58,958 bases of DNA, filler included, from Catajapyx aquilonaris (GCA_000934665.2; 2 parts of 2 records of this genome joined end to end with filler, not necessarily neighbours in it), one strand, 5' to 3'. Counted from the whole stretch's first letter, positions 35,980 through 58,881 are shown. Made by a program: numbers and translations. Notes: a model not told the origin generated them from the sequence alone.

Positions 35980-36260
35980 GAGGTGGGGTGTGATCTTGTT
36001 CTGGAGGAAATTGTGATGTTGGGTAATATTTCCTGAGACGATCTCGATGAACCAGCTGGGTTTTTCCGTTGTCAATTTTCACAATTTGGAAAAGGACTGG
36101 TCCTCGTCTCTGCATTACTCTGTGTGGTCCATCCCATAGACTGAAAAATTTCTGGCTTAGGCCTACTGGAGTCTGGGGTCTGTGTAGTAGGACCAAATCA
36201 CCCTGTTTTATGTGTTTAGGGCGAGGTTTCCTGTCGTCTTGCTCACCTTGCATTATCAAA
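35980..36260 (-). pseudogene. Ty3/Gypsy integrase C-terminal (GPY/F) fragment
   Basis: GDLVLL...KFFSLWDGPHRV...VHRDRLRKY. Confidence 0.8.
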
Positions 36261-38464: not shown

Positions 38465-39149
38465 TCAGTAAAGTGACGGTGGGCGACAAATGGTAGTGAA
38501 ATACTAAGGTCACACATCCCCACGCAAAGCACCTTCCCCCTCTCGACAAATGAAAAGCTCCTCTGAGAATGAAAACAGACAGTGAAAACAGAGGAGTCCG
38601 TGGTGGAGAGTTACAAAATGCATGGATCATGGTTGGTCGTACGAACGCGACAAAAGTCGCAACACAAAACACATCAAGAATTTTCTTGAGAATACTTAGT
38701 TCGTATGACAGAGGTTGGGGACGGCCCATTTCTTCGGCCGTTGGCACAAAACGTAAAGTTATACAAAAACAATATATCCGGGCAAAGGTATAGACACAAC
38801 AGGTGGACGTCGATAATCGGTGGTCGTCCAAACACTCACTGCACATTGGGCGTCTTCCCTTTTCCGTCTCACATGCATTCCAAGGCTTCCGGTTGTCGAC
38901 TAGTTCCGACGAGCAGTGTTTCCGTCCGAGCTGATCGCGATGACTCCCCCGGGTGGGTCGGTGTCCGATTGGGCATGGTACAGCACATCAGATGATGAAC
39001 CGCCACCTCCTCGGGTTGTTGGACGTCCGTCAAAAAGGCCAACGTAACGGGGTGTATGCCCCCTCCGACGACGGCGCTGACGGGGTGTGTCCCTCAGGGC
39101 CACGACGAGCGGGGGCGTCAACACAAACGGCAGGATGGGAGTTCCGAAA

Positions 39150-39415
39150 TATCCACACGGGGTGCGGTCGCTCATCGGCGCACAACCCACCACACACATC
39201 CGGTTGAGGTCGATGAGGCAGGGGTTCCCCATCAGAAAGTCGTTGCCGATGATCACCGGTAGAACTGTTGTCTCCAAAATGAGGAACATATGCGTTATGG
39301 TGGATGTACCCCACAGGATAGGAAGGCATATAGTTCCCAAAGGCCGCGCCACATGGCCATCCAACATCACTCCTCGAGGTAGGGCAGTGCGGGTAATGGG
39401 GGGCCGTTCAGCGTC
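39150..39415 (-). pseudogene. LTR-retrotransposon aspartic protease C-terminal half
   Basis: PLGTICLPI...FLILE..LPVIIGNDFL...IDL. Confidence 0.65.
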
Positions 39416-39419
39416 GGAG

Positions 39420-40170
39420 AGGACCTCCCGCTTCCTTTTCTCTTTCTTGACCAGACCGAAACTCCTGTCGCACGGCAGGAAAGAGTGGCCGGGTTCTGGG
39501 AATCTCTGCACCACCTTTTCCAGGATACCTAACTTTACGAGCAAGAACAGATACTCTACCATAACTCGGTTCTTGTTCTGTGCCGAACAGTTATCTGAAA
39601 AAATGTACACAGTCTTCACACCAGGGCTGAGATTGTGTTCCACATAATACTGCACAAGACTGACCACCTCATTTTGACCCTTTCGTCCAACTGTTTCATC
39701 ATGCATAAAAAAATGGCTTTTTCCAGTCTTTGCTGGTGATATTGTTTGCAAGTGGCTTGTAATCCGCTCCAACCGGCTGGTTGTAACACCATGAAGTGCT
39801 GCGAATGCTTTCTTGCAGACGACATTTTCCTGGGTTCCTTCCCTGATCTGCAAAGACACATACAAAATAATAGTGCGCGCTGTTACAAGGTCACATAGTT
39901 GTACGCTAGGCCAGATGAATATAAGGGAAACCATACTTATGTATAATTTTGTGACCCACCTTGTACAAACATGAGTGTTGGCGCTGCTTCCCATTGCCTG
40001 TTTTTGGTCTCCGACGTTGTATGGATTTCTCACTCTTATGCACCCTGCTAGGTATGTGTCTTGCTTCTCTTTATCTGCGATTCCATTGAAAGAATGCAGC
40101 AATCTTTCCCTCTGGTCAGGGTCAAGGGATTCAAAGCACTTGTACTTGCATGAGCAGTCCTTTTCCCAGT
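39420..40170 (-). pseudogene. Sola1-like transposase fragment (internally deleted)
   Basis: QDTYLAGCI, VCKKAFAALHGV, DETVGRKGQNEV, FSDNCSAQNKN and GHSFLPCDRSFG. Confidence 0.8.
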
Positions 40171-40883
40171 GACCACTTCATTTGTTTCTTAGTCAAGCGG
40201 CCGTTAATTCTTTGCCACTGAAACAAGGGTACAATCATATTCAAGTCGGTTTATGGTGTCACCAGTGACCGACTAAGTTGATTCACGTTGTGTCGTAGTT
40301 GGGCTGCAGCAGTAGGGTCTGTGACCTGCTGCATCTGATCGTCCAGTTGTTGGCGTAGTTGTACGATGCCGTCGACATGAGCATTGTGTGGTCCATGTTA
40401 GGCTGGAATGCCGCATCAAGGCTTCGCCTGTTCACATTGCTTTCCTTTCGAGAACACGTCACAATAAAACGGCACAAAGAAACAAGCGAGACCAGTCATT
40501 AATAAAGAGTCGTCTTACAGCAAGTTTCTATACCTACATACAAAGTTCCGGGAGACCTAAAAATTGTTTATGTGCTCTTTAAAAATCATATCTGACAATG
40601 AAATTTTGCATTATTTTAAGGTAAAAAAAGTGAATTATATGTTAAATTAAAGCGCCAGTATCAGAATGGGGGATGGGCGGGGGTTGCAAAGAGCCATTAT
40701 GTTGAGGCTGGTTCTGATGTAAGGGTGTGAAGGCATTGGCAGCTTCAACGTCTGACAAACCCCCACGACGTTCACCACGGCGAAGGTTCCGTCTGCCATT
40801 CCTTCCACAGGGGACGTACTGCGAGTAACCACTTCGAATCAGTAATGCAGTTCAATTTTCATACTTGCATTGCCAATTTTTGT

Positions 40884-40959
40884 TTGTAGCCCCTGTACGC
40901 CTAAACAGCTGTTTCGCCTTGGCAAGGCTCTTCAGAGGTGCTAACCTCAGGGACTGCAA
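40884..40959 (-). ncRNA. Minimal type I hammerhead ribozyme (HHR-A)
   Basis: On -: gcacct-CTGAAGA-gcctt gcc aaggc-GAAA-cagctg-TT-taggcgt. Palindromic ACAGCTGT stem III and an extended outer stem; stem I has one extra U. Confidence 0.7.
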
Positions 40960-41859
40960 CCCTGCCATACTCCACGGCTGCGGCAACCCGACGTAGGATT
41001 GTTGTTGAATATCTACAGCCCCATCTTGCATTGGATGAACGTGTATGGTTTGAGTATTCTGCTGCGGTGGTGATTGGACCACGCTGCGCTGTCCCAGATC
41101 AGTATACCCAGTTTGGTAATCAATGACATCTTGTTGTACTGGATGAACGGTTAAGTATGTTGCCTCCTCTTGCAATTTTGGTGTCGTATTACGTTGACCC
41201 CAATTGTACGGTCGATAACTCTGATTTTGTCTTACAGCACGACTTGGCGTTCCGGCCCCAGTCTTTATAATTTCCTCCTCTGGGCTGTTGCCATGTACGC
41301 TGGTATCGGCGTTGGGCCTGAGATTGTCCACTGGTACCTCCAGCTGGTGCACCCTGTGTGGTGCTGTGTGTCACGCCAATCGCCATGAATTACGCCTTTG
41401 CTCCATCAATTCGAAGTTACGTGTAGCTAATATGGTACCTCCTATTCAGTCGATTAGGCAGGTGTTCTCGCTTTGGGCGCCATTGCCTGTCAATGTATTC
41501 CTTAACTTTAAATGTGGAATACTCGCTCATACTTTGCTACAGCTGCAACATCCACCACTTTCTCCCACTCATGTGCCATGCTCTGTTTAATCCCATGAAA
41601 TATGTCGATATGCTGATTAAACAATAAGCCTGTCCAATCCATGCTGACATGACGAAACAATGCCTCACCAATTTTCCAGACTGCATTGCTCAGTTCGTGT
41701 AGGTTTGGGATCTACTGTCCGGCATGGGGCTCTGCTACGTACAGAGGTTGTAAGGCTGCTATCCTCCTCTCCATGTCGTCCTATTGATTACAATATAGGG
41801 CTCGGCGCTCTAACCTGAGAAGAGGGAGTTGACTGGCTACGCCCCCTTCTGCCCACCCA

Positions 41860-41940: not shown

Positions 41941-42489
41941 GTTAGTCCTGGAAGTATGACCTGTCCTAAATGTCACTTGAGCTTCAAATATTATTCACTT
42001 CTGGTAATGCAAGGAGGCCTTCATAATTAGCTCAGCTTTCCCAGTGGTTTTTTTAAAGTCACTGTATCTACCTTTCTTTCATAGATTGCTTCCTAAAAAT
42101 CATAAAAAATACATCTTCTGTCATGTTGCCAATTTATTCACAATTCATTGCCTAGAAGTATCATGCAAGAGCAAAATCAAATCAGAAATGACATATTATG
42201 TTGAGGATTTCATAGCGATTGCCTGACCATCTCTTCTTTATTCTCACAAGTTACTTATTAGATCTACAAGTCCTACGATGCATTTCGCTTCCTTTCTTGC
42301 TTGCTCTGAAGCAACCGCAAGTAGCACGTTGAAAAGCTGGTGCTTGGAGTATTGCGGTTGGTTGCTTCCTTCCTCGCTCTGAATCAGCTGTCAGGCAGGA
42401 CCAGCTGAAACAAACACAAGCGGCACGATGAAAATCTGGTGTGGATACCTGCCCGAAGCATTGCGTTTCCTTCCTTCCTCGCTCGGATT

Positions 42490-43240
42490 CAGCTTACCTC
42501 CAACAGTGAATACCAGTGGCTGTACTCGCTCCTCACATGCAACCTCTATGCTCCAGTCCTCTTCACGCATCCTATTTACATGCTCCACATACTTCCTCCA
42601 GTCTTCTGGCTTCACACAGGCGATAGCTTCCTCCCACACCGCCCTGGTGTTGGCCTCCCCAAAATTGCTCTGACATGCCACATGACCATTGTAATACCAC
42701 TTCAACTTGGACCATACATTCTCAATTGGATTATAATGGCAGTGGTAAGGGGGAAGCCGCACTATTTCATGGCCTTCCCTCGCCAGCAATTCATCGATCA
42801 CGTATTTCCGGTAGTGAGGCTTGTGGGGGACAGCCAAGGAGTACAGCTCTTTCTTCAGGTGATTACCAGGGGGCAGCAGGTTCTTCTCCAGCCACTTCCG
42901 GATCCTCTCCTTTCGCCACTGCTGGGTGGGCAACTCCTCTTCCTGCGTGGAATGGTAAGCAGCATTGTCCGTGACAATAAGGCATCTTGATTTTGGTAGG
43001 TTTGGGATGAGCTGCTCCTTAACCCACCGAAGGAAAGTGTGTCCATTCATGTCCCCGTGGTAATCACCTGTAGACCTGCTGGATTGAAAAATCAAGGATG
43101 CCCCTTTCACAAACCCCTTGGCTCCACAAGCATGCCGCTTGGTACATATCTGCAGCCCATCGTGTCCGTCGCCCTCTGCCACTTTTTCACAATATGACTC
43201 AGTTGCTGATGTCCAGTACACTTTGGAAGAGTCCACCTCC
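42490..43240 (-). pseudogene. IS630/Tc1-superfamily transposase fragment with long D-E spacing (Sailor-like, DD81E)
   Basis: GDYHGDMN, IVTDNAAYHS and RLPPYHCHYNPIENVW; I count 81 residues between the second D and the E. Confidence 0.8.
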
Positions 43241-43242
43241 AT

Positions 43243-44002
43243 TTGCCGGTCAGGTCCGGTGCCGGTTTCTTCAGGGGCGTGTCTTCATATGGCCTCAGGT
43301 GGTGGCCATCCTCCAGTATGTTGTCCTGAATTATTTGGAACAGCTGGGCTAATCCCGTTGCTATGAGCGGAGATGGATACTTCCTTCTGATTAATTGTAC
43401 GAGCGTCTCCAGGCCTGAGATTAGTGCACCTGTAGCAATGGCTATGAAAACATGGTCTGAGTGCAAGCTCTCACATGCTGTCACATAGGCCGTCATGGCC
43501 GTAGGTTTGGTATAATGTACAGTTTGTGTCTCTTGTGTCTAGAAATATGTGTGTATCCAAGAATGGTGCATGTGTTCTTCTGTCGTGTACCGTTGCTGTC
43601 AAGTGTTTGTTGTGTATTTTTTCTTGCAATTCCATCATTGTGTGTTCCGTGGTGACAAGGAGTATGTCATCTAAAAATCTCGTGTAAGTGTGTACTTGCG
43701 ACTCATTCTGACTCATGAAATTTACTTCTAATTCATTCAGAAAAATGCCAACCAGTATAGTGGTGAGCAACTAGACCCCATGGCCCCATGGCTATCCCTT
43801 TGCTTTGTCTATAAAGGTCTTGGCCAAACCAAAAATAGTTGGCTTCAAAGAACATGTCCAACAGCCTTTCCATAATGGATGGTGTAAAATACCTGGTTTC
43901 TTCGTGAGCTTGGTGCCAAAATGTGTATAACCTCATGACTGTGTCTTTCAGTAGCTGGCGTTCTATGTTAGGGCACATCGCATCAATGTCTATTGTAAAT
44001 AT
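43243..44002 (-). pseudogene. Penelope-like RT catalytic and thumb fragment, no GIY-YIG visible
   Basis: IDIDAMCPNI, NYFWF...YRQSKGIAMG, RFLDDI, PFLD and SLH...RKYPSPLI, with frameshifts. Confidence 0.8.
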
Positions 44003-44499
44003 CTACATAGTAAATTATCTACATTTGCACTTTGATCATCGGCGCCATGAATCATGTGGCATTTGTTCGCTGCGTCTGCTAACAATGTTTTCATGTGATT
44101 ATTTTCGCCAGCTAACTTTTGCAAATCATTGAGCAATGGAAAGTGATCTGTTATTTTTGACTGTCCGGGGATAGGCTTGAGCTTGCACAACTTACGCAAT
44201 CCCCGCTGTAGTCTTGAGTAGCGGTCATCTTGCCACTTTGATCTTTCTTCGGATTTTCCCATCACAGTTGATGCTGGCTCATTTCTGAAGGAATCTGGCT
44301 CGGAGGCACGGAAGATGGCACTTGAGGGACTGCTGCCTCCTGGACATCCCCCGCCAACCGAAAATTTGTAGGGACCAATGCAGGGACGTTGATCATTGAT
44401 GATCTGGGCTGGTTGAGGCTTATGTCTGGTTCTTTATCTTGGGCAAGATCTTGGGAGAATGGTGTTACACTGTTTGTATTTTCTGTTCTAGCTATTACA

Positions 44500-44960
44500 A
44501 TACACAAAATGGTGTGGTAAATACAGAGCAAACACACTGCACGTCCTTTTCGTTCTACACACTATACCACACTAAAAAGAACCAAAAAAAAGGGGCGTGG
44601 GAAGACCAAAACAGCTCGGTTCCCACTAACAAAAAAAAAGGAAACAGTTCACCTCCTTGCCACAAGGTGTCAGTAACGGGCAAACAAAAAGTAAGTGCGC
44701 CAAAAGCAAATGCGTGCCACCAGTAAACATACCGCCCACCAAAATTGACGTATTTTCCGAATAAGACATAAATGATATAAGAACATGCTCACATCTTATT
44801 GACTAGCAAAAGGCAAGAGGCAAATCTTGACCACAGGTCTTTTAAATGTAGAGTCTCGGCTTCGCACAGTAACTACGCGCTTCACCAGGCTTAGACCCTT
44901 GATGATCCAGAAACGCCGTCTTATAACGGAAAGGAGTAGCTGGGGCCGGCATGTAATAGG
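44500..44960 (-). mobile_element. BEL/Pao integrase remnants, PPT and start of the 3' LTR
   Basis: PQLLLSVIRRRFWIIKG is fused to VTVRS...FKRPVVKICLLP. PPT GGTGGGCGGTA is followed by TGT at 44729. Confidence 0.75.
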
Positions 44961-45039
44961 CGAAGATGCAGATACCGAATTCATCAGATCAACCAAATCC
45001 TTTTATATGCAAAAGTGTAATCAAAGTCAATTCTGAGTA

Positions 45040-46130
45040 ATTATGAGAACTGCATGAGAGTCGCTTCTGAACCTCTGCACCCGCAGTGGCATAAAATGCC
45101 AGACACTTGCGCCTCACTTCACTTGCTCCATCACATGGGAAGGTAGTCAGGAGCTTCTCGCATTCTGGACCAAGGTACACCGACTCGAGTGGCAGGAAGT
45201 CTGACGGATGCAACAGTGCACTGTCACTGGCACTCTTCAGGGCTGACCCACGCACAAATCTTTTGGCACAACTGCATAAACAGCTTCTGGGAGGCATCGG
45301 CCAGTTTGTGTACCAAGATCTTCCTACCAAGGAATAGGGCATTGAATGCGTTGGTGAAGTTCAGAGCGTACTTCAGGGGGGGTATATGCTTTATTGTAAT
45401 TGTTCTGTAGCTCCTGAAGGATGATTTCTGCTGACTTGAGCTTGCCCTCTTTCATGACGCTGGCACCATCACTTGCTACTCCAACTATGTTTGTCATTGG
45501 CACATCCTTTTCCTTCAACATTTCCGTGAAGGCAGTTAATATATCTTCTGCGGAGCATCTGCTGGGATCTAGTGGCATAAGATCGAGCAAATCAGTGCGC
45601 ACTCGCCCATTTTGTGGTGAGACATAACGTACCAACACACACAAGTATTTTTTCAAAGATATAGATCTGTTCTTTCGTCAATTAGGATTGAAAACTTTGC
45701 CTTCCTCACATTGTCACAAGTTTCCTCCTGTTCCACTTTCTCTAACAGATACGTGCATTTGCTTCGCTTCATTGACAAATCCTGTGCAATTTTTGAATCT
45801 GGAAATGCTGATTTGAGCACAGGGACCAAGAGTGGTCCACAACTTGTATAATGCAACATTGTGCTCNNNNNNNNNNNNNNNNNNNNNNNNNNNNNAACCC
45901 GATTTCAGCCTTTTTCACCTTGTCCCGATGTTGTTCCTCCTGCCTTGACTGCACACTAGTTGTCAAGAACCCACTAATTGAAGGACTGCTTTTCACAGCC
46001 CTGACTTTCACTTGGTGATTCTTCCCCAATGAATGTTTCTCTATTTCACTTTTCCCGTAGCAAATTGAGACACCACGGGCAGGACATTTACACTTTAATT
46101 TGTTGTCCGGATCAGGTTTAAGCCAGGCTT
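45040..46130 (-). pseudogene. hAT transposase fragment (ZNF862/ZBED-like)
   Basis: AFPDSKIA, FSILIDERTD, KYLCVLVRY and GVASDGASVM. Confidence 0.75.
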
Positions 46131-46199
46131 TGAACTTGCAATTGTTTCAAATGTTCTGCGAATAGTGACTTGTCGTTCTCTGACAGCTCTTCTCCAGTG

Positions 46200-46760
46200 G
46201 CACGAAGAAAATTTGAGAAATTAGGAAAGGTCTCCTCATATTTTCCATTCAGTATACGCTGACGCCACAACTCCCAACTCCCAACTTTTTCATCGTTGGT
46301 TCTATCTTGTCTTCAACTAAAAAGACGGTTACTTTTTCTCCTTGAAGACTTAAGTTCAGATGATTCACATGGACGAAGATATCTGATAAGTATGCTTACT
46401 TGACTAGCCAGGGAAAATCATTCAAACGATCGCTGAGATGAAATTGCTTATCCAAGAGAAATATTCTTATTTCGTCTTTCAATTCCCAGAATCGAGACAA
46501 CACTACTTCTGGACAGCCAGCGAACTTCACAGTGAAGCAAAAGTTGATGATATTCACTGTCCATTTCCTTGCAGAGCTGCCCAAAAAGTCTTGAATTCAG
46601 TGACTTGCTTTTTACGAAATTGACAATTTTCACTGATTCATTTAAAGTCTGCTTAAGCTCTTCAGGTATCTTCTTAGCCACTAGTTCTTCCCTGTGTAAG
46701 CAGCAATGGAACCATGTTGCCGACCCCGATTTCTTTTATTCGTGCTTGCAAGTCCAGTAA
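46200..46760 (-). pseudogene. hAT Buster/Charlie-type transposase fragment
   Basis: WFHCCLHREELVAK, LNSRLF, LLLHCEVRWLS and AYLSDIF. Confidence 0.85.
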
Positions 46761-46764
46761 GTCT

Positions 46765-48481
46765 GGATTAAATAGTCTGTATTTAACGAAATGCATCAAA
46801 GGTCTAAGAACAAACAGCAGTATATCATTAACCCTACAAGTAATAGACTTCATGCCCTGTATTATGGGTCGCATTGTGAGTTCTGACACATCCTTTTTAA
46901 TTTTATGCAATTTAGGCATAGTATACAACAGTGGTACCACATATTTCTGTCCATATGGATTTTCCTCCTTATCATACAGCACGTGTTTCTTACTTAAAAA
47001 CGTCTCCACATCCCTATTCCGTTTAAGCAGAGGTTTAATTTCGGGTAATATTTTAATCATGTCACCATGAATTCTTTCGAGTGTATTTTCAAACCACTCT
47101 TTGCATCCTAAAATATGTCCCATTCTAATATATGACCCAGAATAATAGTTTTTTCAATATACAGTTCCGAATCCATAATGGTTAGGCCGGGTTAGGCCCA
47201 CGTTTTTATCACCCATTTTAATAACGATTTCGTTTCCATTAAATTTCTCTAACCATCCCTCAGCCTCAATTTGAGCCTTGGGTTTTAGCAAGGGGCACCC
47301 TCGTAGGGCAGCATTTACCCATAATTGTTGCTTAATTTGGCCCATAATTTGTCGTTCAGGGTACTTAGGAGGAAATTTATCATATCCTCCGACCTTCTCA
47401 TTGAATAATTTATTTTTTTTACCCCCCTGGATATTTCCACGTGATTCAGGTTTCTGCTCACTTTGTCTGACAGCGTCTGCAACCCAATGATGCTCCAGAT
47501 GATTTAAGCAAGTGTTCAATTGTTCATAATTCACATAATTATGGTCAATATGTTTAACTCTTCTCTCCAAGTATTGCATAACTGTCGTAGGTATAAATAC
47601 GCTCGACAGATTTGTACTTGAAAAGTTTGCTAATGCAATATTCCTTTTCGGATGCAATTCCAGAGTTTCATTGGTATTCATGAGGTTGTCATAAATTTCC
47701 ATAATGTTTTTAATACCCAACAAATTACATAGTGTTAAATTTTGGTGTGAAATCATTTCAGCACCTGCCATTATCGTTTTATTTTCCAACTTTGGCCACT
47801 TTATCAGTTTTTTTGGGCCAGCCCATCCATATCTACAAGGCTGTATTCCTGCCATTTATTCAGAGAATGCACTTTATTTCCAGCTTTGAAAAATTTGTTA
47901 AACCCATTATCCCAACATAATTGCATCAAATGATCTACATCCCTTTTCCTGGGAACAGGTATATTGGCAACTCCACATTCCTGAATCAAGTGATTAAGTT
48001 TTCGATCCCTCTCTTGGCACAACAATTTTAATTTTTCCCCTGGCAACAGTTTTTCATCAACCCTCGACATAAGTCCATATCCTAGTTGTAAAGGATCCAG
48101 TTGTTTAAAAAATTGACCCAGTAATCTCTCACGTTTGTCACTTGCTGACTGAGACTGTCTTCCATCATCCCCTGCATCATCAACGTCCTCAGCCTCAGTC
48201 ACTGCTCCAGTGTTTCCATGGACCCTCGTCCCGGCTGCCATCTGTCCTGCTCCAGAAGCTTGAGTTGCGCCAGCTGTTCGTTGCACATCATCCATTGCGG
48301 GAATGGCCTCCACGACTTCCATCAGCTGACTGTCCACATTTAATGGATCTTCAAACTGTCCTGCCACTGAAGGAGCACCAGGTGCGTTGATACCGGAGTT
48401 GTCTCCACCCTCATTGTATTGGCCTCTCCCACCTCTCATTCCTCTTGGCATCGCCCTCCCTCTCCCTCCAGGTGATGTCAT
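46765..48481 (-). mobile_element. Penelope-like (Athena/Terminon-like) element copy 1: ORF1 (48481-47804), -1 frameshift, RT N-terminal half
   Basis: RGG-rich ORF1; IVIKMGDKNVG, LYTMPKLHK and MRPII PLE RT motifs; slippery site at 47807-47813. Confidence 0.8.
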
Positions 48482-49004
48482 CTGTCTCAGTAAGGATAGG
48501 TCTGGGATCTTTGTTCGAGTACAGGTTGTAATGGTGGATTACTGATGTTTTGAGGGTGAAGGGGTACTTGGTTGCCAGTAAACTGGACATTAGGTGGTGG
48601 TGGATTGTTTCCAAGTTGGGGATATTGATTAGGTGGGTTACTGGCAGGGCGGGGGCCTTGAGGATTATACTGGGGGTAGTTGGTTGCTCGATTGGTTTGG
48701 TCAGTCCTCTGCCTTCCACTTCAATTCATTTTTCACTAATTAATGATTAATTAGTGCTAATTAATTAATTTTGGGAGATAAGGAGTTGAATGGGACGGGT
48801 TAGGAGAAAATCGGCAGGTTGGTTTGGACTTAAAAAATGTTTGAAGAATTCTTGGTTGGACATGGTTTTGGAGGGGGGTTGGGACAACTGTCCTCTTTAG
48901 ATTTTAAGGCTTAAGGTGCTGTTTTGGTAAAAGGTCTGTTTGTTGACGGTAGGGCTTGGTACGTTAAGGTAGGGTACGTCGCAGTATGGGGGGTCGGTTC
49001 TTTT

Positions 49005-49035
49005 GGTAGGTTAGGTTAGGTTGGGTGAGGATAGG
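49005..49035 (+). repeat. Short degenerate (TTAGG)n tract
   Basis: GGTAGG TTAGG TTAGG TTGGG TGAGG ATAGG. Confidence 0.55.
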
Positions 49036-49060
49036 AAAAGTAAGGTAATGAGGTTATGCG

Positions 49061-49465
49061 TTAGGTCCTGGAGCGACCGGGTGGGAGGCACGTATGAATA
49101 TTTTCGAAGTGTTCCTTCCTTGGCGAGGGATGTTTACCACCCCGACCGGCGGCCACCTGCTTCCTCGTTGGTGGACCTCCTCCGCCCATCGTCTGACGAT
49201 CTGCGTCTTCTCTGCGGTACCGATCAATCTCCTCACGGACCCGTGTTTGCCCTTCCCTAGGGAGGCGGGAAAAGAGCTCCTCTCTACTCTTCCTTGTGCG
49301 GGCAAGCAACTCCCTTCTTTGCTTATACAGAATGGTGGTCATCTCCACACTCGCCACCCGCACAAATGCGTCCAGCTCGTTCCAATCTGTATTTGGCAGC
49401 AGATCCAGATTCGGGACATAGTGGTCTGGATGCAGGTGCAGCGTATGCACCGGGTCCCCAGCCAT
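49061..49465 (-). CDS. Helical, charged ORF of unknown function, probably a PLE accessory or N-terminal domain
   Basis: 134-aa open frame with a coiled-coil-like stretch, lying between a TTAGG tract and an HHR. Confidence 0.35.
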   Translation of the reverse strand: MAGDPVHTLHLHPDHYVPNLDLLPNTDWNELDAFVRVASVEMTTILYKQRRELLARTRKSREELFSRLPREGQTRVREEIDRYRREDADRQTMGGGGPPTRKQVAAGRGGKHPSPRKEHFENIHTCLPPGRSRT

Positions 49466-49600
49466 GAGGCTCCTGACCTCATCGTCAGGTTAAGTTATTA
49501 AATAATGCCCAGGGCACGGCAGGATGAAGTAAAATAATCAAGGCATCATTTGCTCAGGCGATATATATATTGTCCAACAAATGCTTGCAGTTGTCCTCCT

Positions 49601-49655
49601 TATCTAGCACCTTACGCGTTTCACCCTATAAGGGCTCATCAGAGATGCTTGGTAT
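49601..49655 (-). ncRNA. Minimal type I hammerhead ribozyme (HHR-B)
   Basis: On -: agcatct-CTGATGA-gccct tat agggt-GAAA-cgc-GTA-aggtgct. 7-bp stem I and palindromic ACGCGT stem III. Confidence 0.85.
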
Positions 49656-49987
49656 ACTTTAAGTATGAGAGGCAGGACACTGCAAGCATGCTACAACTGC
49701 CGACATCTTTGAGCAAGGTTAGGTTAGAAATTAAAAACAAGCCGGTTGGCTACCAGGCAGGTCCCGAAGCAAGGCCCGATCACAGGGGCGTACGCCTTTC
49801 TTCCGCCGTGCCAAGGCGTAGCGGGCTTGTGTGTACCGGACCGGTCCCTCTACCAGTCCGGGCCAGAGGTAATAAGAGGAATATGTTTGCCGGAAAGAAT
49901 AGACGCTAAGGCCAGATATACAGTTTTATGAGAGTTTATTGGTATATTTCCAAACACTTTTCAATAACAGATTTCCACACTAGAATT

Positions 49988-50043
49988 GGCCGGGTTCCGA
50001 CCGGTTTCGCTCTTGGCGAAGATACTCTTCAGGGGAAATGGCT
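49988..50043 (-). ncRNA. Minimal type I hammerhead ribozyme (HHR-C)
   Basis: On -: ttccc-CTGAAGA-gtatctt cgcc aagagc-GAAA-ccg-GTC-ggaa. Palindromic ACCGGT stem III. Confidence 0.75.
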
Positions 50044-50427
50044 TGATGTGTGGTACATAATTTTGCGTTTTTAGTAATACATTATAAGTTCCCGTAAGGC
50101 CACCGCGTGCACTCGGTTTCTTAGCCAGACAGGGGGACTTGGTTTTTATCTGGATATAATTTGTCTAGGCTTCCTCCTCATGTTGGTGAAGAATGGCTGC
50201 TCTTTCTTGTTGATTGGATTTCTCTGGCTACTTCAATGGTCGGTGTGGGAGAGGGGGGTAAGGGTATGGTTTGTTTTTTAACAACCCACGGAGGGGCGTG
50301 TGCGAGGCTCGGTGGTAGGGGGATTAACGGTACAAGTCAACGGGATTGGGATTGTAAAGGAGCGGACCAGGACTGGCCCATTTCGGAGAAGGTTGCGGCG
50401 GGGACAAGGGGGCAAGGTGAGACTCAA

Positions 50428-50817
50428 TTATAGGGTTAGGAATGCCGGGGGAGCAGGGGAAACTTTGGCGGTCGTATCAGCGTTCACCCGGTGTTGTTGG
50501 TCCCTCAGTCTAATATTGGCTGTTTGTTGGATAGCTTGGCGCTGATTGATTTGGCGCTGGAATTCCTCCATCCTTTCTTCCTGGGCAAAGTGGGCCCGGG
50601 CCAGCCTGGCCTGGCTAGCATCCTTGGCGGCCTGACCCTCTCGATGTTGGCGTCCGGCCCGGCAGCCACGTCGTCGCGGCTTCTTCCTAGGTTTGGGGAC
50701 GTCAGGCCTGGCGGTCGGGAGCGGAACCATCCGAGGTGTAGCTGGCAGACTTCTAGGCAGGAGCAGGTGCAGCGCCAAGTGTGGTTGATTTAGGCCACCC
50801 AAGTTCAGAGAGCCCAA
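50428..50817 (-). CDS. Basic, Gln-rich ORF of unknown function within the PLE chain
   Basis: 129-aa ORF (RKKPRRRGCRAGR, coiled-coil-like), co-oriented between HHR-C and HHR-D. Confidence 0.3.
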   Translation of the reverse strand: MGSLNLGGLNQPHLALHLLLPRSLPATPRMVPLPTARPDVPKPRKKPRRRGCRAGRQHREGQAAKDASQARLARAHFAQEERMEEFQRQINQRQAIQQTANIRLRDQQHRVNADTTAKVSPAPPAFLTL

Positions 50818-51085
50818 GATGGAGCTCGAAGAACTAACTCTCAGCCTCAGGTGGAAATTGGAGCTCGGTTTTGGGTGGAAGGGGGACCTCGAGCCGCAAA
50901 GTGCAATGCGTCCGAGGAGCCGGCTGCCTCTATAAGGCGCCTTGCTTTGGAGCAGGAAATTTTCCGCTCTGGATCAGCAAGGATGGATGACCTTCGAACT
51001 GCTGAATGGCCCAGTTCTAGGTATGTAATGAAAATAATAACTTCGGGATGCGCCAGAAAATAGTAATTAATTTTCACCAAACATG

Positions 51086-51150
51086 CCCTGCAGCTTACAT
51101 TGCCCGACGGCCGTTTCGCCTAAAAGGCTCATCAGGGGCCAGCTACAGGG
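51086..51150 (-). ncRNA. Minimal type I hammerhead ribozyme (HHR-D)
   Basis: On -: ccctgtagct g gccc-CTGATGA-gcct ttt aggc-GAAA-cggcc-GTC-gggc...agctgcaggg. Palindromic ACGGCCGT stem III. Confidence 0.88.
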
Positions 51151-51683
51151 TAGTACATGACTGCAACGAGGGCATTAGTACACCAAGAGACATTGTGACG
51201 AGGTAGCCTAGATCATTTGGGCCAGTTCAAAAGTTTTTTGCCTGACTGACTGTACGTTCATATTCGTTCGGAGTCTGAAGGTCTCTGAACCAAGACACAC
51301 CATGAATCCTATCAGCTGTATTAAAACAAGGTGAATAGTAATCAAAAGTGTCTTCCAATGGCCTTATCGCATCCATTTTGGAAATATCAGTCATGTGGTT
51401 CCTTTCTGCTTCTGTAAAATTAGCGACCCACCATGCTAATAGTATAAAAATATTCATGTGGCAACACTGGTTGGATATTGGTCCTTTTCCTCCCGTGAGA
51501 TCGCTCGAACCATAGCCACAAGGGCGAATATACCCTTTCGCCCTTTTTTCTCCTGACGGTGGCTGGATATTCGCCCGATGCACGTCTCGTCAGCTCGTGT
51601 TCTGTGCGAGATACCGTTTCGCCACTTTGGCATGACACGCCACTTCACCTAAATGTACAACATGGGGATGGATAATCGCCATT

Positions 51684-53024
51684 TTGAATAGTCGATGAGT
51701 AACGAAACCGATAAGGGGTCTAAGAACATACTGAAGCGCATCGTTAACTCTTCCAGTGTTAGAGGCGAACCCTTGAATAATGGGCCGAACTGATAATTCC
51801 GATAGGCTAGTTTTAATCTTATGTAGTTTGGGCATAGAATAAAGAGCTGGTACTATGTATTTCTGATTATAGGGATTCCTCTCATTTTTAAATTTTATGT
51901 GGCGTTTGTTCAAAAATATCTCGATCAATTTAGGTTTTTGAGTTTAAACGCAACCTGGACCATTTCAGAATGATCTTTCTCGACTGTATCAGTGAACCAC
52001 TCTGTGGTGCCTATTAAGTGACCAATCCTCTTATAAGAGCCACAGTTGAGATGTTCAATCGTTTTGGTCGCATAACAAGCTTCAGTCCATAATTGTCAGG
52101 CCTGCATTTTTTGTCTGCCATCTTTATGACTATGTCGCTACCGTTAAATATACGCAGCCAGGCTTCTGCTTCTATTTGAGAGGTTGATTTCAACGGTGGA
52201 GGCTTCCTAAGACAAGCATGGGTATAAATTTCGAGGCGAATATGACTCTCATAATGTGTTTCTCCGGCATTGAGGTTGGAAACTTCAGATATCCGCTGGC
52301 TTTTACTGAAAATATATATATTTTTTTTTCGTCGTTCCATATGAACCTTTTTCCCGCTTCTCGAGCTGGGCAATGGTATCGCACTACCAGTGATGTTCCA
52401 GGTATGCATCTATTTGTTCCGAGTTGGTGAATTCCCTATCTACATGTTTAATCCCTCTCTCAAGGTATTTCATTACTACTTCAGGTACCACTAGACTGGA
52501 AATATTTGAGCTAGAAAACTGTGTAGTGAATATCCGCCAATTGGCTTGATCTTAAGTTCATTTTGCTCCCATAAATGACTCCAGGATACATTCAATGGTG
52601 GGGACCCCCAATAAGTTGCATAATTTTATATTAGCATTAGAGACAAGTTGCATACAAGTGACTGAGTCCTGCCCTGCAATCTTTGGCCATTCAATCAGTT
52701 TTTTCTCCCGATACTTGATGGTAATGCAAGCTTTCGGATACTGTCATAATCCCACTCGTAGAGTTTTTTAACTGTATGGTTTCGATGATTTAGTAGGAAG
52801 TGGTTTTTCCATCCGGCATTCCAACATCTTAATATGATCTCATCTATTGAGTTCTCGAGCCGGTAATTCAAGCCTGGCGACTTCCATTTCCTGTATAAAG
52901 TGACTGTTTTTTCTGTTTCGCTCGTCAATTATTACCGAGAATTTTTCAGACTGTAGATTACACTTCTTCATTTTCATACCCCAGCAGTTGGCTAGTGTAC
53001 ATATGGTCCATAAGAACTTGTCCT
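51684..53024 (-). mobile_element. Penelope-like element copy 2 (diverged, decayed): ORF1 C-terminus, -1 frameshift, RT N-terminal half
   Basis: Collinear peptide similarity to copy 1: KKLIEWPK, LCNLLG, QIEAEAWL..FNG.DIVIKMADK, NPYNQKYIVP.LYSMPKLHKIK and RPIIQG. Confidence 0.8.
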
Positions 53025-53343
53025 TTGTGGTGTGACCTGGTAGACCCACTAGGTTGTGACGAACCTGCATCTACTCACCTGGTCCGTCGCCCGGTGTCGC
53101 TCAGTCTGGGTCCTTCAATGATAACACACCATTTTGAATACACTACTTTATTGGCACCATCTTACATCTCATTCTCCCGTCTCCCTTCACCGTTGCCAGG
53201 CCTTCCGGCCCACGCCACATGGTTTTCACCGTTGCCATACTCTTGCCACGTTGCCATGCTCTTGCCACGTTGCCATGCCCCCAAACGTGGCAATTCCCCC
53301 CCCCCCCNNNNNNNNNNNNNNNNNNNNNNNNNNNNNNNNNNNC

Positions 53344-54870
53344 ACCGAAAACAATTTCCCGGCCGCGTTTATATATTGAGGGGGATTGGTTTTTGAGGTT
53401 GGCCATCAGCCTTGTGATAGGCAGTGGTAAACAAAAGGCCAAATACCAAGGCGGAGATGATTCCGGGACTAGGTCCCGATAATGAACATATCGGGTTGAG
53501 CGAGTTAGTGCCAGGTGACTAGCACTTAAAATACGTTCCTCATAAACTTGAATGCCCGCACTCAATGAGAGTTCCAGTAATTCCAAGTCATCACAGCCCA
53601 CTTCCGATAACTTTCGGTATACCCTACTGTACCAGTTCAGGCGTGGGGATGAACCTGCCGCCTGGTTTTTGGAGCTAAGGTATGCCAGTTTCTGGAGTCG
53701 GGAGGTAAGAAGGTTGGTCAGCTTTATTAGTTGTTTGCCTATCAATCTCAGGGCTCTTCCAGAAAGTGGTCTAATGCCTAGTTCCAGCCTTAGAAAATAA
53801 TTTGCCGTGTTGGATGGGAGCTGGAGAAACCTCTTCAAGAAATAATTTTGAACCTGATCAAAGATCTGTAAGTGCGCAATTCCCCAGACCTGGGCTCCGT
53901 ATAGAATTACGGGAGCAATTTGGGCGTCAAACAGCCTAAGTGCTACCTGAACGTCACGGACTTTCAGGCGTAGCATTGTATTCCACAGGCTATTGATTGC
54001 CACTTTGGCCTTCTTTTTAAGACATTCCGCCGCCAACGTAAAGTTTCCCGTAGAAAAAAAAACGGTATACCAGGATATGTATATGTGGAGGTTCAGTTAA
54101 GCGGCACAGTGTCCCAAAAGAAAGTACATTTAGGCCGGCAACCGGGCCTTTTAAAATACATCACATTTGTTTTCTTTAGGTTCAAACGCAGGCCATTCAA
54201 GAGAAAGTAATCCCTCGAACAATTTAAGTTTTTCTGAAGATAGGCTTGGCTGTTACATAACAAAATTATGTCATAAGCATAGGCTAAGGTGGTAAAGTCC
54301 GGAGTATTCGGCTCCAAATTTACTCCCGGCGAACCATTTTCGCCGATGTACCTTTCGAGGTCCGAGAGGAAGATGTTAAAAAGTACCGGGCTCAAAGGCT
54401 CACCTTGCGGCAAACCAACCGGGACCCGAATAACTACTTTCGGATCACAATCATCTACAATTCTGAATTTTCTATGATAATCTTGCAGCAACATCACAAA
54501 GCTCCGACTCATCCCCAAAGTTAATAGTTTCGAAAAAAGCAACTGGTGAGAGACCGAGTCAAGCGCTTTTGATAGGTCAATAAAGACGGCAAAAAGCCCC
54601 CCTCTTGGCTTCGATATATACCTTTGAACCAAACAGTTTAAAGAGGAGGTTGTCAACACACCCTCTTCCTGGGCGAAAAGCAGCCTGTGTGTCTGAGAAG
54701 ATTTCATGTTTATTAGCCCAACATAGTAATCGACCAGTGACTATAGAAGAAAAGCGTTTTACTACATTGTTCACCAGAGCGATGGGACGATAATTTCCTG
54801 GTTCCGTTGGGTCACCCGCTTTAAAGACTGGAGTAACCCTCGCACGGGCCCAAACACTGGGTATCTCATG
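53344..54870 (-). pseudogene. Non-LTR retrotransposon (LINE, RTEX/L2-like) RT fragment
   Basis: NYRPIAL, QAAFRPGRGCVD, FIDLSKALDSV, GLPQGEPLSPVLFN, LAYAYD and ILYGAQVWG. Confidence 0.85.
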
Positions 54871-55909
54871 CTAAATGGTTCAATGGATTCGGCATTGACT
54901 GATTAGTCAAATACTGTTACACACCCCACAGCCAAGCTTCAACAAACCAAAACAAAACGCACCCTGGGGGGGGGGGGGTGGAGGCCAGGAATATTTTGGA
55001 GGGTGAGAAAAGTCATAAATCGGCCCGGTACTGTCCTCTGTCGGCCAAGAAATCAACAAAATAATGATACAAAACATCCTCCAAAAACTCAAAAGAAATC
55101 ATAATGAAAATAATAGTACTGTCACTGGTAGGAGAGAGAGAAAAAATCACATCGCGGCACTGTTCACTTGCAAGGCAGGATAGTCTTAGTCAAACCGAAG
55201 TCAAAAGGAGGCGGAGGTGTACGTGTCGTCCTCACAGGGTGTCTTCTGGGACGGAGCCGAAAAGCGGGCGTTGTCCAGACTGGGCTGCATTTTCTTTCAG
55301 AATCTTCTTGCCTTTTTGCAAAATCTTTTCCTGCATATTCTTCGAAAATGCAACTGACAGGGTGGTGGCACACTCCGTCTCACCTGAGAATTCGTCCTCA
55401 ATCTGATATGGATAGTGTGAAATGTATAATTTCAAATCCAACATGTATTTCTGAATTATGGACGAATTTAAAGCAACTTGCGGTTTCCTTAACATCTAAG
55501 AGCCCCTCCTTTTTAATCCACACTGGCGTCTAGCCGGCCTGGTAGTAGCCATGTACTGCAGAATAAGGGATTTGTTCCCTGGTGTTGGTCTTGTTTATTT
55601 TGCAATACATTTCAGCCTCCTCTTCATCTTGAATGTGCACAGAACCGCTTAGACTTTTAGGTTTTTTCATTTGTTTTGGAAATCAATGCTTCCCGGCTTC
55701 GTTTGGTTCTAATGAAGTACTCCAAATGACCTGAGTGACTCAGTGGATCATAATATGCTTTCTAGAATGGGATAAAGTAGTGTGACATTTCGAGAGAGAA
55801 AAAATTGTCGACAAGTGTCTAAATGCTGTAAGACTTACATATCCATGTTTTGGTGTGTTCATTTCTTAGTTTTGGAAATGATTCTATCAGACTTCGTACA
55901 CTGTGTACA

Positions 55910-56007
55910 GTGTACTATGGGCGCCAAAAGAATTGACCGGTTTTGATGGGTTTATGGCGCTATATACCCATCAACTCCGGTCAATTCTTTTGGCGCCCAT
56001 AGTACAC
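55910..56007. repeat. 98-nt near-perfect hairpin
   Basis: GTGTACTATGGGCGCCAAAAGAATTGACCGG pairs with CCGGTCAATTCTTTTGGCGCCCATAGTACAC. Confidence 0.85.
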
Positions 56008-56031
56008 CACTACACATCTTATTCTCATATC

Positions 56032-56364
56032 CTACTTTGCTTCTCTGCTCTTCTTCCTCTCTTCATACACACTAAGTAGTACTGACTGGAACTGGTCATC
56101 ATCCTTGGTCAGACAGGCCTTGTGGTACTCCTGAGCCAAGGCAACTCCTATTTCTGCCAAGTCATTTGTAACTGCTAGGCCTGACACTGCCTTCTGTGCT
56201 TGCTGGTAGCCTGGGTTGGCGCTCCATGTCGCAGGGTCAGAGAAGAAGATGTCAAGTGGAAGGTTCATTATGTTCATAAATTTTGCCGTGTTTCTTGTCA
56301 CGAAACTCGCAAGAGTTATATCATCACAAGCGATAGGCCGAGAAGTGATACAGGGATCAAACAT
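56032..56364 (-). pseudogene. hATm-type transposase C-terminal fragment
   Basis: DPATW...Y..A...V..LAVTNDLAEIGVAL...LTKDDDQFQ. Confidence 0.7.
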
Positions 56365-56464
56365 GTTTATTCAGAGTGAGCCACACAAGTTTGCTGACTG
56401 ACAAAAGCCTCAGCACCACATGTTGATAAGAGTAATACGTGCTCACCTATAATTATAATAATCG

Positions 56465-57100
56465 TCACTGAGACTTAAACTTTATAAGTTTCTGCATATG
56501 TCGGGAGGACCTCTTCGTCGTAGCCCGCGACGTCAACTTTCCTTCATAGTGTAATTTCATTGCCACGAGGGCACGCAACATGTACAGCCGGTGATCACAA
56601 CAAGGAGTGTACTTAGCAAAATATGACGGATGACTCACCTCGGTTACTTTTTTGATGCTGTCAGTGGCCCCAAGAGAACTTTCATGCCTCTTTTTCGGAT
56701 AGATAAAGTGATACGCCTGCAATTGCTTTGTCACAACTGAAACGAGCATGTCACTGGGTGCCACCAGATTCCCAAAGTCTGGAGTCTGATCTTTTGACGG
56801 CGTACGCCAGGAAGAATATCAATAGCTGTTCATCCCTCTGAATAGTTTTATTTTGGTGGACCACTGTTGAATGGCAGTCGTGGCACAAAGGAAAGTTTTT
56901 AAAGCACTTTTGTGCCAAGTACACTGCGACGTACTCTATGCTGCTCGTTTCCAGTCCAGTCATATTCAGTGAATCACTGCTTTCTGCCACCTCCCTCAGC
57001 TCTCTGTGTAGACCTATGTCCTCATCCTCTTCCAGGATCATCTCTTCATATGATGATCTGGGACTGCAAGGCGAGAGTTGATGGGGTGTCGTACTGCAAT
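56465..57100 (-). pseudogene. P-element/THAP9-like transposase C-terminal fragment
   Basis: IEYVAVYLAQK...CHDC, GNLVAPSD and CCDH. Confidence 0.6.
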
Positions 57101-57856
57101 TATTATTATTGCAATTAAGAATTATTAACAGTTAGCATATGCAAGTAAGTGATGGGAAGTAGGCCTATACCGCCGTGCCATCCCAGATCAATATTAGGAT
57201 CCGGCCACATACCTGGTGTGGCTTGACAGAGGGTGGCCCGAATCAGGATCTTGGTGAGTCAAGAGCATCTCGTCGTCGCTTGGCTCACAGTTGGCTGATT
57301 CAGGAGGCTGCAGCATGCGAACGCACATTGCATGTTGCAATGCACAACGGAACTGGCGGGCCGATAAACAAAGTTTCCAGGGGATCCTGATATAGTCTGG
57401 ATGTCAGGAGAAACTTCATCCCCTTATTTTTCTAATCCCTCCATAGACTCAACGTGGAAGACAGAGTTATGAGTAGGCCGTCGAAGCAGTCCGGGTTGCC
57501 TGAGTCACTTGTTAATACCCACGATGCAGGGAACGGCAAAGGGGACTTTTGGCCAATGAGTTATTGGTGCGGTACAGCGTGTATGAAATGCACCTGTTGA
57601 GCTTACCTTGTAGCTCATCAGCCGTCACGAATTCCTCCATGGGCACGTCGCATGAGTGAAGGGTTCCGTCCTCGATGAATACCAGGCAACAAGAACAATG
57701 CGTGATCATCTCCGCTGCTAGCTCACCGATACGACCACCGTCCGCTCACTGCTGCTAGTCCTCCCGCCACCCGCCCTCCCTCCGCCCGCTCCACCCATCT
57801 CTCCAAAATGTCTCTTCCACCTCCGAGAATCCCCATTATTGACTTTTCAGAATATA

Positions 57857-58690
57857 TTAATCAGGTCCGTGCAAATTACAATTGAGTTGTCGATATCTAC
57901 GTCTCTTCCTCCTCACCACAGGCAGGCTTTGTGCAAGCTGGTTTCGCAGAATCTTAGCAGCTTTGCATGCAGCTGGATCTTCCTCTCCATGATCTTCAAG
58001 ATACTCATCGGGGTCATGCAGGTCTTCCACGGCACCCTCATCAACGTCATCTGGGAGATCATATGAGCCACAAAGGTTGTGCAGGACACATGAAGCCATT
58101 GTAATCTTGCAGATTCTCTTTATGCAGCCAACTTCTACAAAATAAAGTCCGCGGAATCGCTGCTTAAGGAGGCCAAACGTGTGCTCGATTCGAACTCGCT
58201 GCGAACTGTGCTGATAGTTGTAATTCTTCTTCCATTCTGGAAGGCTCCCAGTGTCTCGGTATGGGGTGAGAAGGTATGAAGTGAGTGAGTAGGCGCCATC
58301 ACCAAGTAGATAGTATCCACCTGCAAGAAATTAAATTGTCAAAAATGCGCTTCTAGTCACCTGGGTTGTGGAACTGACCTTCGCGCTAAGTCCTGGAATA
58401 TCCTTACGAACGAAAGAGTTTTTGAACACCTTTGCGTCATATGTACGGCCCGGGTATCCAATGAACACATCTCGGAATCTCTTCTGATCATCGCATATTC
58501 CCTGCAGGATTATGGCATGGAATTTCTTCCTATTGTAATACGAGCTAGGTGACTCGGATGGTGTTCTGATGGGATGAAGCTCCCATCTATGGCTCCAACC
58601 ACTCTCGAGGCCTAATTCTGCAGGAAACCCCTCTGCTATTCGGGGCTTCTAATCTTTTGTTGGCAGCTTTATGACTTCTGCTGAAATGCT
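57857..58690 (-). pseudogene. PIF/Harbinger (HARBI1-like) transposase fragment with a retained intron
   Basis: VGAIDGS, YYNRKKFHAIILQGICD, GYPGRTYDAKVF, LLGDGAY, RVRIEHTFGLLKQRFR and CVLHNLC. Confidence 0.9.
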
Positions 58691-58700
58691 GTATGAATTC

Positions 58701-58820
58701 CTGTTTCGCTCGTCAATTATTACCGAGAATTTTTCAGACTAGATTACACTTCTTCTATTTCATACCCCAGCAGTTGGCAGTATTTAAAGGGTCTAAATTA
58801 GTGTACATATGGTCCATAAG
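58701..58820 (-). mobile_element. PLE ORF1 fragment (copy 3), near-identical to 52913-53014
   Basis: Direct nucleotide repeat. The consensus peptide aligns without gaps to ORF1 of copy 1. Confidence 0.75.
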
Positions 58821-58881
58821 GTTGGTTAGGTTAGGTTAGGTTAGGGTTAGGGTTAGGTTAGGGTTAGGTTAGGTTAGGTTA
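58821..58881 (+). repeat. Arthropod telomeric-type repeat (TTAGG)n with TTAGGG variants
   Basis: About 11 units read directly from the sequence. Confidence 0.9.

Follow-up and report, generated by a model that had tools for sequence, protein, structure and literature searches.

Positions 46765-53024 of a stretch of the Catajapyx aquilonaris assembly GCA_000934665.2 combine pieces of Penelope-like elements (PLEs), hammerhead ribozymes (HHRs) and TTAGG repeats, raising the question of whether PLEs once formed an array at a chromosome end in this genome. The whole stretch analyzed, here called the window, comprises 58,958 nt including filler, consists of two joined parts and is animal DNA with many transposons. 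The initial annotation had read the segment as a Terminon-like chain of modules and orphan open reading frames (ORFs) with TTAGG spacers, the relic of a telomeric retroelement array. Our analyses point elsewhere: the region is probably made up of decayed, co-oriented pieces of a two-ORF, apparently endonuclease-less PLE lineage with Athena-like architecture, lying in an interstitial, transposon-rich stretch. The PLE pieces, the hammerheads and the ORFs listed for the segment are all on the minus strand, in agreement with the annotated co-orientation of PLE pieces and hammerheads.

The relationship of these pieces to each other became apparent through a single distant relative. The start of the second ORF (ORF2) of copy 1, the PLE copy at the lower end of the segment, was used as query P0001 with its one TGA read as X. 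Among 1.84 billion representative proteins, phmmer found one relative only, P0003 (E = 2e-11, 33% identity); a search for longer homologs of P0001 returned none. P0003 is a reverse transcriptase (RT; RVT_1), and the proteins related to it are RTs of PLE type. Some of these have a GIY-YIG endonuclease: P0005 carries PF01541, and GIY-YIG-type C-termini are readable in P0006 and P0010. The metagenome contig bearing P0003 (L001; 6,631 bp) repeats a 4,845-bp unit perfectly head to tail, its end duplicating its start over 1,786 bp without mismatch; this duplication could reflect a genuine tandem array of PLEs or could have arisen in assembly from a template that was repeated or circular. The L001 unit encodes an ORF1 of 602 aa and, in the −1 frame, an ORF2 of 728 aa with a DKN motif and RT (RVT_1 only). 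ORF2 ends without GIY-YIG, and the 4,845-bp unit holds no further frame of at least 80 aa. About 150 nt past the ORF2 stop lies a hammerhead whose helix I has 6 bp and which contains the palindrome ACACCGGUGU; Rfam missed it at E values up to 1. A comparison of L001 ORF1 with 5.8 billion proteins returned only the self-match, and L001 ORF2 had no relative among the genome contigs or viral contigs searched.

Mapped onto the window by tblastn and phmmer, the two L001 ORFs gave collinear minus-strand matches. Specifically, ORF1 residues 104-254 matched 49504-49169 (tblastn E = 4e-5; phmmer with residues 110-190, E = 2.8e-5) and residues 458-580 matched 48223-47846 (E = 3e-6), followed by ORF2 residues 66-363 at 47645-46728 (tblastn E = 4e-28), 378-449 at 43996-43784 (E = 7e-10 and 1.7e-10), 454-535 at 43770-43474 (E = 5e-4) and, weakly, 586-664 at 43538-43110 (E = 3). 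Read in this way, the sequence suggests that copy 1 represents a single, almost complete element rather than a stub beside orphan genes. Its ORF1 comprises an N-terminal helical domain (49064-49504), a linker that is C/A-rich on the sense strand and holds many stops (48539-49063), and a C-terminal domain (47804-48538) ending in QKN and a stop. The ORF at 49061-49465 (ORF-B) exists as annotated, not as an orphan or accessory gene but, by its L001 match, as part of the ORF1 N-terminal domain of the element itself. An AF2 model of this domain, built from only three sequences, is a helical hairpin (helices 33-75 and 78-101; mean pLDDT 65.9). The annotated GT-skewed spacer likewise has the skew and loses its status as a spacer: it is the ORF1 linker, whose C/A skew resembles the low-complexity middle of L001 ORF1. 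The two domain matches lie in the same frame, 1,075 nt apart versus 846 nt in L001. Because its flanks are collinear parts of one ORF1, the degenerate TTAGG tract at 49005-49035, which falls in the linker, is inside ORF1 and not between elements. A literature search found no description of this ORF1 family, most subscription journals being outside its reach.

The first part of copy 1 ORF2 (46713-47855, the frame running to 46677) carries the N-terminal DKN and the first RT motifs and has its in-frame TGA at 47154-47156. Its matches to P0003 and L001 ORF2 identify it as a PLE-type RT. DK(G/N) and KLHK...RPI(V/I) are the names of motifs of PLEs, and a PLE/TERT-related RT with N-terminal DK(G/N) and KLHK...RPI(V/I) motifs is indeed present here. 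ORF2 homology breaks at 46728 and restarts at 43996 with zero residues lost. Between these points lies an unrelated insert of ~2.7 kb (44006-46712, minus strand) that contains transposase-like pieces and an N run at 45867-45895; its ORFs have no Pfam match, and from its motifs we presume it to be hAT-like. Past the insert, ORF2 continues at 44005-43110 with the RT motifs IDIDAM, KGIAMG and FLDD, interrupted by frameshifts, and then gives way to a Tc1/mariner-type fragment (DDE_3, 43284-42394). Copy 1 therefore does not end, 3′-truncated, at 46765. Assignment of the RT part at 43996 to copy 2 was rejected, since the residue count suits copy 1 only.

The junction between the two ORFs is the same in copy 1, copy 2 and L001. 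Directly ahead of the ORF1 stop (K N stop) each has the heptamer A_AAA_AAC (minus-strand positions 47807-47813 in copy 1 and 52698-52704 in copy 2; 4129-4135 in L001), and past it the −1 frame reads KKLI(K/E/T)W in all three. A_AAA_AAC is a classical slippery heptamer, and the sequence suggests that it drives −1 frameshifting in this element. All three thus have the two-ORF, Athena-type organization with a putative −1 ORF2. Folding of the 90 nt downstream of the heptamer, relative to shuffles, gave z scores of −2.5 for copy 1 and 0.07 for L001, so that only copy 1 folds better than its shuffles. No description of the slip site was found in the literature covered, though no search was aimed at it. 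PLE ORF1 can be separated by a frameshift (Craig et al., PMC8557442, figure 1 legend).

Copy 2 (~51686-52908, minus strand) is decayed and cut at both ends, retaining the end of ORF1 (KN and a stop at 52695-52697) and ORF2 as far as an "RLF" motif. A tblastn search with copy 1 ORF2 recovered it as five collinear frame pieces (summed E = 3e-70), and L001 ORF2 also matched it (residues 7-128 and 284-355). By these likenesses copy 2 is best read as an older homolog of copy 1, and the PLE-type RT matches in both bear out the annotation of two co-oriented, minus-strand RT/ORF1 copies. Another copy is represented outside the segment by an ORF1 N-domain fragment at 41429-41813 (minus strand; L001 ORF1 residues 98-170 and 203-229, 41-44% identity, E = 2e-16), after which comes a hammerhead at 40935. 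At the upper end of copy 2 lies a 105-125-bp repeat, present at 52908-53014 and again at 58698-58820, the two being 94-100% identical besides a 20-bp indel; the latter directly adjoins (TTAGG)n at 58824-58881. This repeat was considered as a PLE 5′ end and rejected, as it shows just a 15-residue hAT-like likeness (including the short word "FSVIIDER").

Hammerheads were sought with our own descriptor of a minimal type-I motif, consisting of the core CUGANGA...GAAA, helix II, a short A-U-closed helix III, the cleavage triplet and helix I. In its strict form it found three sites in the window (51135, 49642 and 35490), all on the minus strand, versus none in 200 dinucleotide shuffles; the relaxed form found four, adding 40935, against a shuffle mean of 0.4 (40 shuffles). 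Rfam at gathering scores had no match of any kind in the window. HHR-D (51101-51140, minus strand) is a complete minimal type-I motif whose helix III is A-CGGCCG-U; it satisfies both descriptors and matches Rfam RF00163 (type I) at 51141-51100 with 28.9 bits (E = 1e-3), under the gathering score of 34. HHR-B (49606-49649, minus strand) is also complete and found by both descriptors; its helix I has 7 bp, and the palindrome ACGCGU forms its helix III. At relaxed threshold it matches RF00008 (type III) at 49651-49613 (20.7 bits, E = 1.8). It lies in the copy 1 leader, ~150 nt ahead of the ORF1 ATG, and over 38 nt shares 84% identity with the hammerhead at 35490 (35451-35498, minus strand), itself complete, minimal and found by both descriptors. 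HHR-C (49994-50038, minus strand) was read from the sequence and is near-complete: its core, CUGAAGAG...GAAA, is perfect, helix II is bulged (2+4 bp) and helix III is the palindrome ACCGGU. Both descriptors miss it because helix I has 4 bp with a 1-nt bulge, and Rfam does not report it even at relaxed thresholds. Of the three hammerheads annotated in the segment, B and D thus stand as complete motifs, and C stands with this reservation. The hammerhead at 40935 (40904-40943, minus strand), like that at 35490 outside the segment, has a perfect core, a 5-bp helix II, the palindrome ACAGCUGU as helix III and a weakened helix I. A further candidate near 51640 was dropped, as neither descriptor matched it.

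Minimum free energy folding of the five hammerheads gave z scores of −1.27 to +0.44, which is uninformative, as expected for dimer-type motifs, and MAFFT aligned helices I and III inconsistently. PLE hammerheads, including those of shrimps, have a small palindromic helix III and are thought to be active as dimers (PMC4209133); the association of minimal, palindromic-helix-III hammerheads with the element agrees with that description. The hammerhead-bounded units D-C (~1.1 kb) and C-B (382 nt) have nothing in common beyond the ribozyme cores, and the D and C modules likewise have no sequence in common with the PLE copies beyond these cores. Our guess is that the HHR-D and HHR-C segments are leader or 3′ pieces of other copies.

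Between HHR-D and HHR-C lies ORF-C (50431-50973, minus strand; ATG form 50428-50817; recognition 1258). The frame exists as annotated, and its status as an accessory gene is not upheld: searches returned no relative, and an antisense ORF of equal length (117 aa) covers 50440-50790. ORF-C has no Pfam match and no similarity to L001 or to the other modules; that it is an ORF1 fragment could not be shown, and from the sequence at hand we do not regard it as an established gene. Neither ORF-B nor ORF-C had a usable ESM Atlas match. A separate open frame of 221 aa (34549-35211, minus strand) lies between the hammerhead at 35490 and a CCTAA-like run at 34403-34412; it belongs to no Pfam family, and its L001 ORF1 match is nonsignificant.

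No GIY-YIG domain was found in the window, either by Pfam in 119 frames of at least 75 aa or by tblastn with 10 PLE proteins, some of them GIY-YIG-bearing, and the two L001 ORFs. With L001, the closest relative, also lacking GIY-YIG, the lineage looks endonuclease-less and two-ORF from its sequence, and the earlier suggestion of an endonuclease-less lineage is plausible. We propose that copy 1 would run from a leader containing HHR-B through ORF1 (N-domain, C/A-rich linker with TTAGG, C-domain) and the slip site into ORF2, now split by the 2.7-kb insert. By analogy with published PLE biology, dimer-type hammerheads would cut read-through or tandem transcripts to unit length, ORF1 and an ORF1-ORF2 fusion would be made via −1 frameshifting, and the nuclease-less RT would prime on a free 3′-OH at chromosome ends or double-strand breaks.

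The setting of the segment bears on how these pieces came to share one orientation. Over 34000-58958, all Pfam-supported transposon frames are on the minus strand, as are the PLE pieces, and this part of the window may be a uni-strand transposon cluster. The frames are an integrase C-domain (35708-36442), DUF7869 (38903-40177), the DDE_3 frame after copy 1 (42394-43284), a LINE RVT_1 (54096-54870), a P-element C-terminal region (56754-57131) and DDE_Tnp_4 (57860-58648). Upstream of copy 2, the LINE terminates in short tandem repeats of GGCAACG type (53146-53300, minus strand), next to an N run at 53308-53342. On the plus strand, Pkinase matches at 19126-19464 and 20680-20961 mark kinase exons within 14900-21000 (Pfam), so that the window contains or adjoins a host gene. 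Perfect long hairpins at 55900-56474, 31079-31203 and 6176-6308 gave sub-threshold Rfam matches to plant microRNAs on both strands; they are probably MITE-like inverted repeats, and read depth at the 55.9-56.5-kb hairpin is very high (~780-3400).

Sequence reads came from four DNA runs of one sample in one study, in which 92-95% of words are present; since this sample may be the assembled one, they are not independent support. Read contigs span 45971-50000, 49971-50903 and 50932-52942 at single-copy-like depth (~22-35). At that level, therefore, the joins are not assembly chimeras, and the copies stand outside any recent burst. A high-depth contig (665-943, two runs) matches from 46765 upward and then diverges, and its in-frame continuation is RT sequence, which indicates that a multicopy relative with an unbroken RT is present in the genome.

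The telomeric question turns on the TTAGG tracts. Telomere-like 10-mers number 13 in the window versus 0.43 in shuffles, and runs of at least 10 nt occur at six loci (14333-14394, 18193, 34403, 49007, 49716 and 58824), four of them outside the segment. Because this background amounts to about one per 10 kb, the two loci in the 6.3-kb segment are not clearly enriched (our Poisson estimate, ~0.08). The tract at 49005-49035, with its G strand on the plus strand, contains a 16-nt exact run (49007-49022) within ~30 nt of degenerate repeats and is 37 nt longer in some read contigs. The run at 49716-49727 (plus strand) is 12 nt and reads CTAACCTAACC then TTGC on the sense strand. The C-rich telomere strand is the PLE sense strand at 49007-49022, 49716-49727 and 34403-34412. 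A (CCTAA)n tract of ~60 nt at 14333-14394 (plus strand) has the opposite orientation to the other tracts; its neighbors are a (CA)n run and a repeat in which GTCCCCAC words abound, and neither a PLE nor a hammerhead lies close by. The motif AACCTAACCTTGC(T)CAAA at 49725-49708 matches L001 2323-2339, just ahead of the ORF1 ATG, at 17 of 18 bases (BLAST E = 0.41).

Endonuclease-less PLEs that attach to telomeres have a hammerhead and reverse-complement telomeric repeats at the 3′ end, and their truncated 5′ ends are telomere-capped (PMC6431247, PMC8557442, PMC3846280). In the window, none of the five hammerheads is directly joined to such repeats, nor is that of L001, and the 60 nt past each of the five contain nothing telomere-like. 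The nearest sense-strand CCTAA downstream lies at 268 nt for HHR-C, 591 nt for HHR-B, 1045 nt for the hammerhead at 35490, 1379 nt for HHR-D and 6492 nt for that at 40935; in L001 the distance from hammerhead to nearest CCTAA is ~690 nt. Between HHR-B and copy 1 ORF1 there is no telomere-like run. We found no truncated 5′ end capped by telomeric repeats; copy 2, whose 5′ break is at ~52908, adjoins the unrelated 105-125-bp repeat there. In one penaeid shrimp, AACCT is among the most abundant interstitial microsatellites (PMC3124438). The TTAGG tracts of the window are short interstitial telomere-like repeats and do not show a former position at a chromosome end. The tracts annotated at 49005 and 49716 are thus present, without standing as spacers: one lies in the ORF1 linker, and neither sits at a demonstrable element junction.

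How, then, did the pieces accumulate? The explanation proposed initially, that elements were added head to tail to TTAGG ends, capped by telomerase and later became internal and were invaded by transposons, we regard as unlikely. It would account for the endonuclease-less two-ORF architecture, as such PLEs prime at chromosome ends or breaks (PMC3846280, PMC6431247), for the shared orientation of the PLE pieces and all five hammerheads, whose sense strand is the C-rich telomere strand at three tracts, for the recurrence of AACCTAACCTTGC ahead of the L001 ORF1 ATG and for the variable length of the 49005 tract among read contigs; CCTAA also follows three of the five hammerheads within 268-1045 nt. 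Yet the expected module of hammerhead and immediate telomeric repeat is absent from all five window hammerheads and from L001, the truncated 5′ end of copy 2 lacks CCTAA, and the 3′ truncation of the same copy is not producible by end-primed addition. The 49005 tract separates collinear halves of one ORF1, the E value of the L001 motif match is high, and the six loci are spread over 59 kb, including the kinase-gene region, with that at 14333-14394 reversed and that at 58824-58881 beside a non-PLE repeat. A telomeric array relic is therefore possible rather than demonstrated, the tracts being scattered in unrelated contexts. That the pieces instead derive from ordinary endonuclease-bearing PLEs with hammerheads in pLTRs, the GIY-YIG domain having been in the deleted parts and the TTAGG tracts being incidental microsatellites or preferred targets, seems improbable to us. 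It draws on the loss of the last ~65 or more ORF2 residues from copy 1 and most of ORF2 from copy 2, on the GIY-YIG domains of more distant P0003 relatives, on the preference of such PLEs for insertion at microsatellites (PMC8557442) and on the interstitial abundance of AACCT in a penaeid shrimp (PMC3124438). Opposed to it are the endonuclease-free end of ORF2 in L001, the one close relative in which this ORF is complete, the absence of GIY-YIG throughout the window, and the two frameshift-joined ORFs, which are the architecture of endonuclease-less Athena, versus single-ORF endonuclease-bearing PLEs (PMC6431247, PMC13159263). That the shared orientation stems from the locus rather than from PLE addition, the locus being a uni-strand transposon trap that resembles a piRNA cluster or runs antisense to a long transcript of the host and keeps insertions of one orientation, we consider very improbable. 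The minus-strand transposon frames at 34-59 kb and the plus-strand kinase gene upstream (~15-21 kb) would fit such a trap, which leaves the hammerheads and the element structure unexplained; it is compatible with, not opposed to, the decay of co-oriented PLE pieces that we favor.

Several observations weigh against this favored explanation as well. L001 is only ~28-33% identical to the window copies, and its perfect terminal duplication is possibly an assembly effect. The C and D modules are left unassigned in the proposed layout; HHR-B sits in the leader, and L001 has no hammerhead at that distance. Fourteen stops interrupt the linker in the frame of ORF1, with both flanking domains open, so ORF-B and the ORF1 C-terminal domain may come from two different elements or may be distinct ORFs. 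Copy 1 ORF2 is missing past ~aa 664 of L001, which leaves endonuclease absence unproven for the window itself. A search for pLTRs or other terminal repeats flanking copy 1 and copy 2 found none. Finally, the occurrence of CCTAA 268-1045 nt downstream of three of the five hammerheads is above background, in a comparison picked after seeing the data.

Among known systems, the closest in architecture is Athena of bdelloid rotifers, which shares a PLE RT with DK(G/N), two frameshift-separated ORFs and a helical or coiled-coil-like ORF1 (PMC6431247, PMC8557442, PMC3846280, PMC5537684). GIY-YIG is absent from the closest complete relative, L001; hammerheads are minimal with a palindromic helix III; L001 is arranged head to tail, and the window pieces are co-oriented. 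Unlike Athena, the window has neither telomeric repeats directly past hammerheads nor telomere-capped 5′ ends, and its host is arthropod-like with TTAGG-type repeats; the likeness drawn here is one of architecture. Rotifer Terminons similarly combine co-oriented PLE RT modules, hammerheads, intervening sequence and nearby telomere-like repeats (PMC6431247). In contrast, our Pfam searches found no GDSL esterase, DEDDy exonuclease or Rep here, the intervening ORFs are ORF1 or unsupported frames, other genes belong to independent transposons, and no 3′ end combines hammerhead and telomere repeat. The label Terminon-like is accordingly not upheld: 46-53 kb holds no accessory domains by Pfam, and none of the hammerheads has telomeric repeats in reverse complement immediately after it.

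Penelope/Poseidon, Neptune and animal retrozymes share with the window the RT family, dimer-type hammerheads and complex partial tandems, and the HHR-C and HHR-B cleavage sites, 382 nt apart, fall within the circle sizes reported for animal retrozymes (PMC7229834). Endonuclease-bearing PLEs differ in having a single RT-EN ORF and GIY-YIG, and retrozymes differ in that the hammerhead-flanked units here are not repeats of one another. Within crustaceans, MjPLE01 of kuruma shrimp (Koyama et al. 2013) is an endonuclease-less PLE found beside endonuclease-bearing ones (cited in PMC8557442, PMC3846280 and PMC13159263), placed as Neptune-like (PMC8557442) or in Coprina (PMC13159263). Compared by description only, it resembles our element in being an endonuclease-less PLE, with shrimp PLE hammerheads having a small palindromic helix III (PMC4209133). 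As Koyama et al. 2013 reported endonuclease-less shrimp PLEs, the element is of an already known kind.

For annotation, the locus illustrates how pieces of this lineage may be misread. Pfam has no family for ORF1, and hardly any relatives of it exist in the databases, so that its pieces look like orphan genes and can be mistaken for them; the RT, for its part, can seem truncated when an insert merely splits it. Because its slip site is conserved, the lineage also lends itself to an experimental test of whether a PLE uses programmed frameshifting. Speculatively, and with little expectation that it is right, the window copies and L001 could represent an arthropod Athena-like branch of endonuclease-less PLEs that uses the A_AAA_AAC frameshift, a short CCTAA motif at the unit boundary (AACCTAACCTTGC coming ahead of the unit start in both) and priming on TTAGG ends or interstitial tracts, the locus being a healed-end array that later became internal. 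Telomere-attaching PLEs have so far been best documented in rotifers, fungi, protists and plants. A telomere link, if true, would extend them to an arthropod with TTAGG telomeres and would inform the question of how chromosome ends are divided between telomerase and retroelements.

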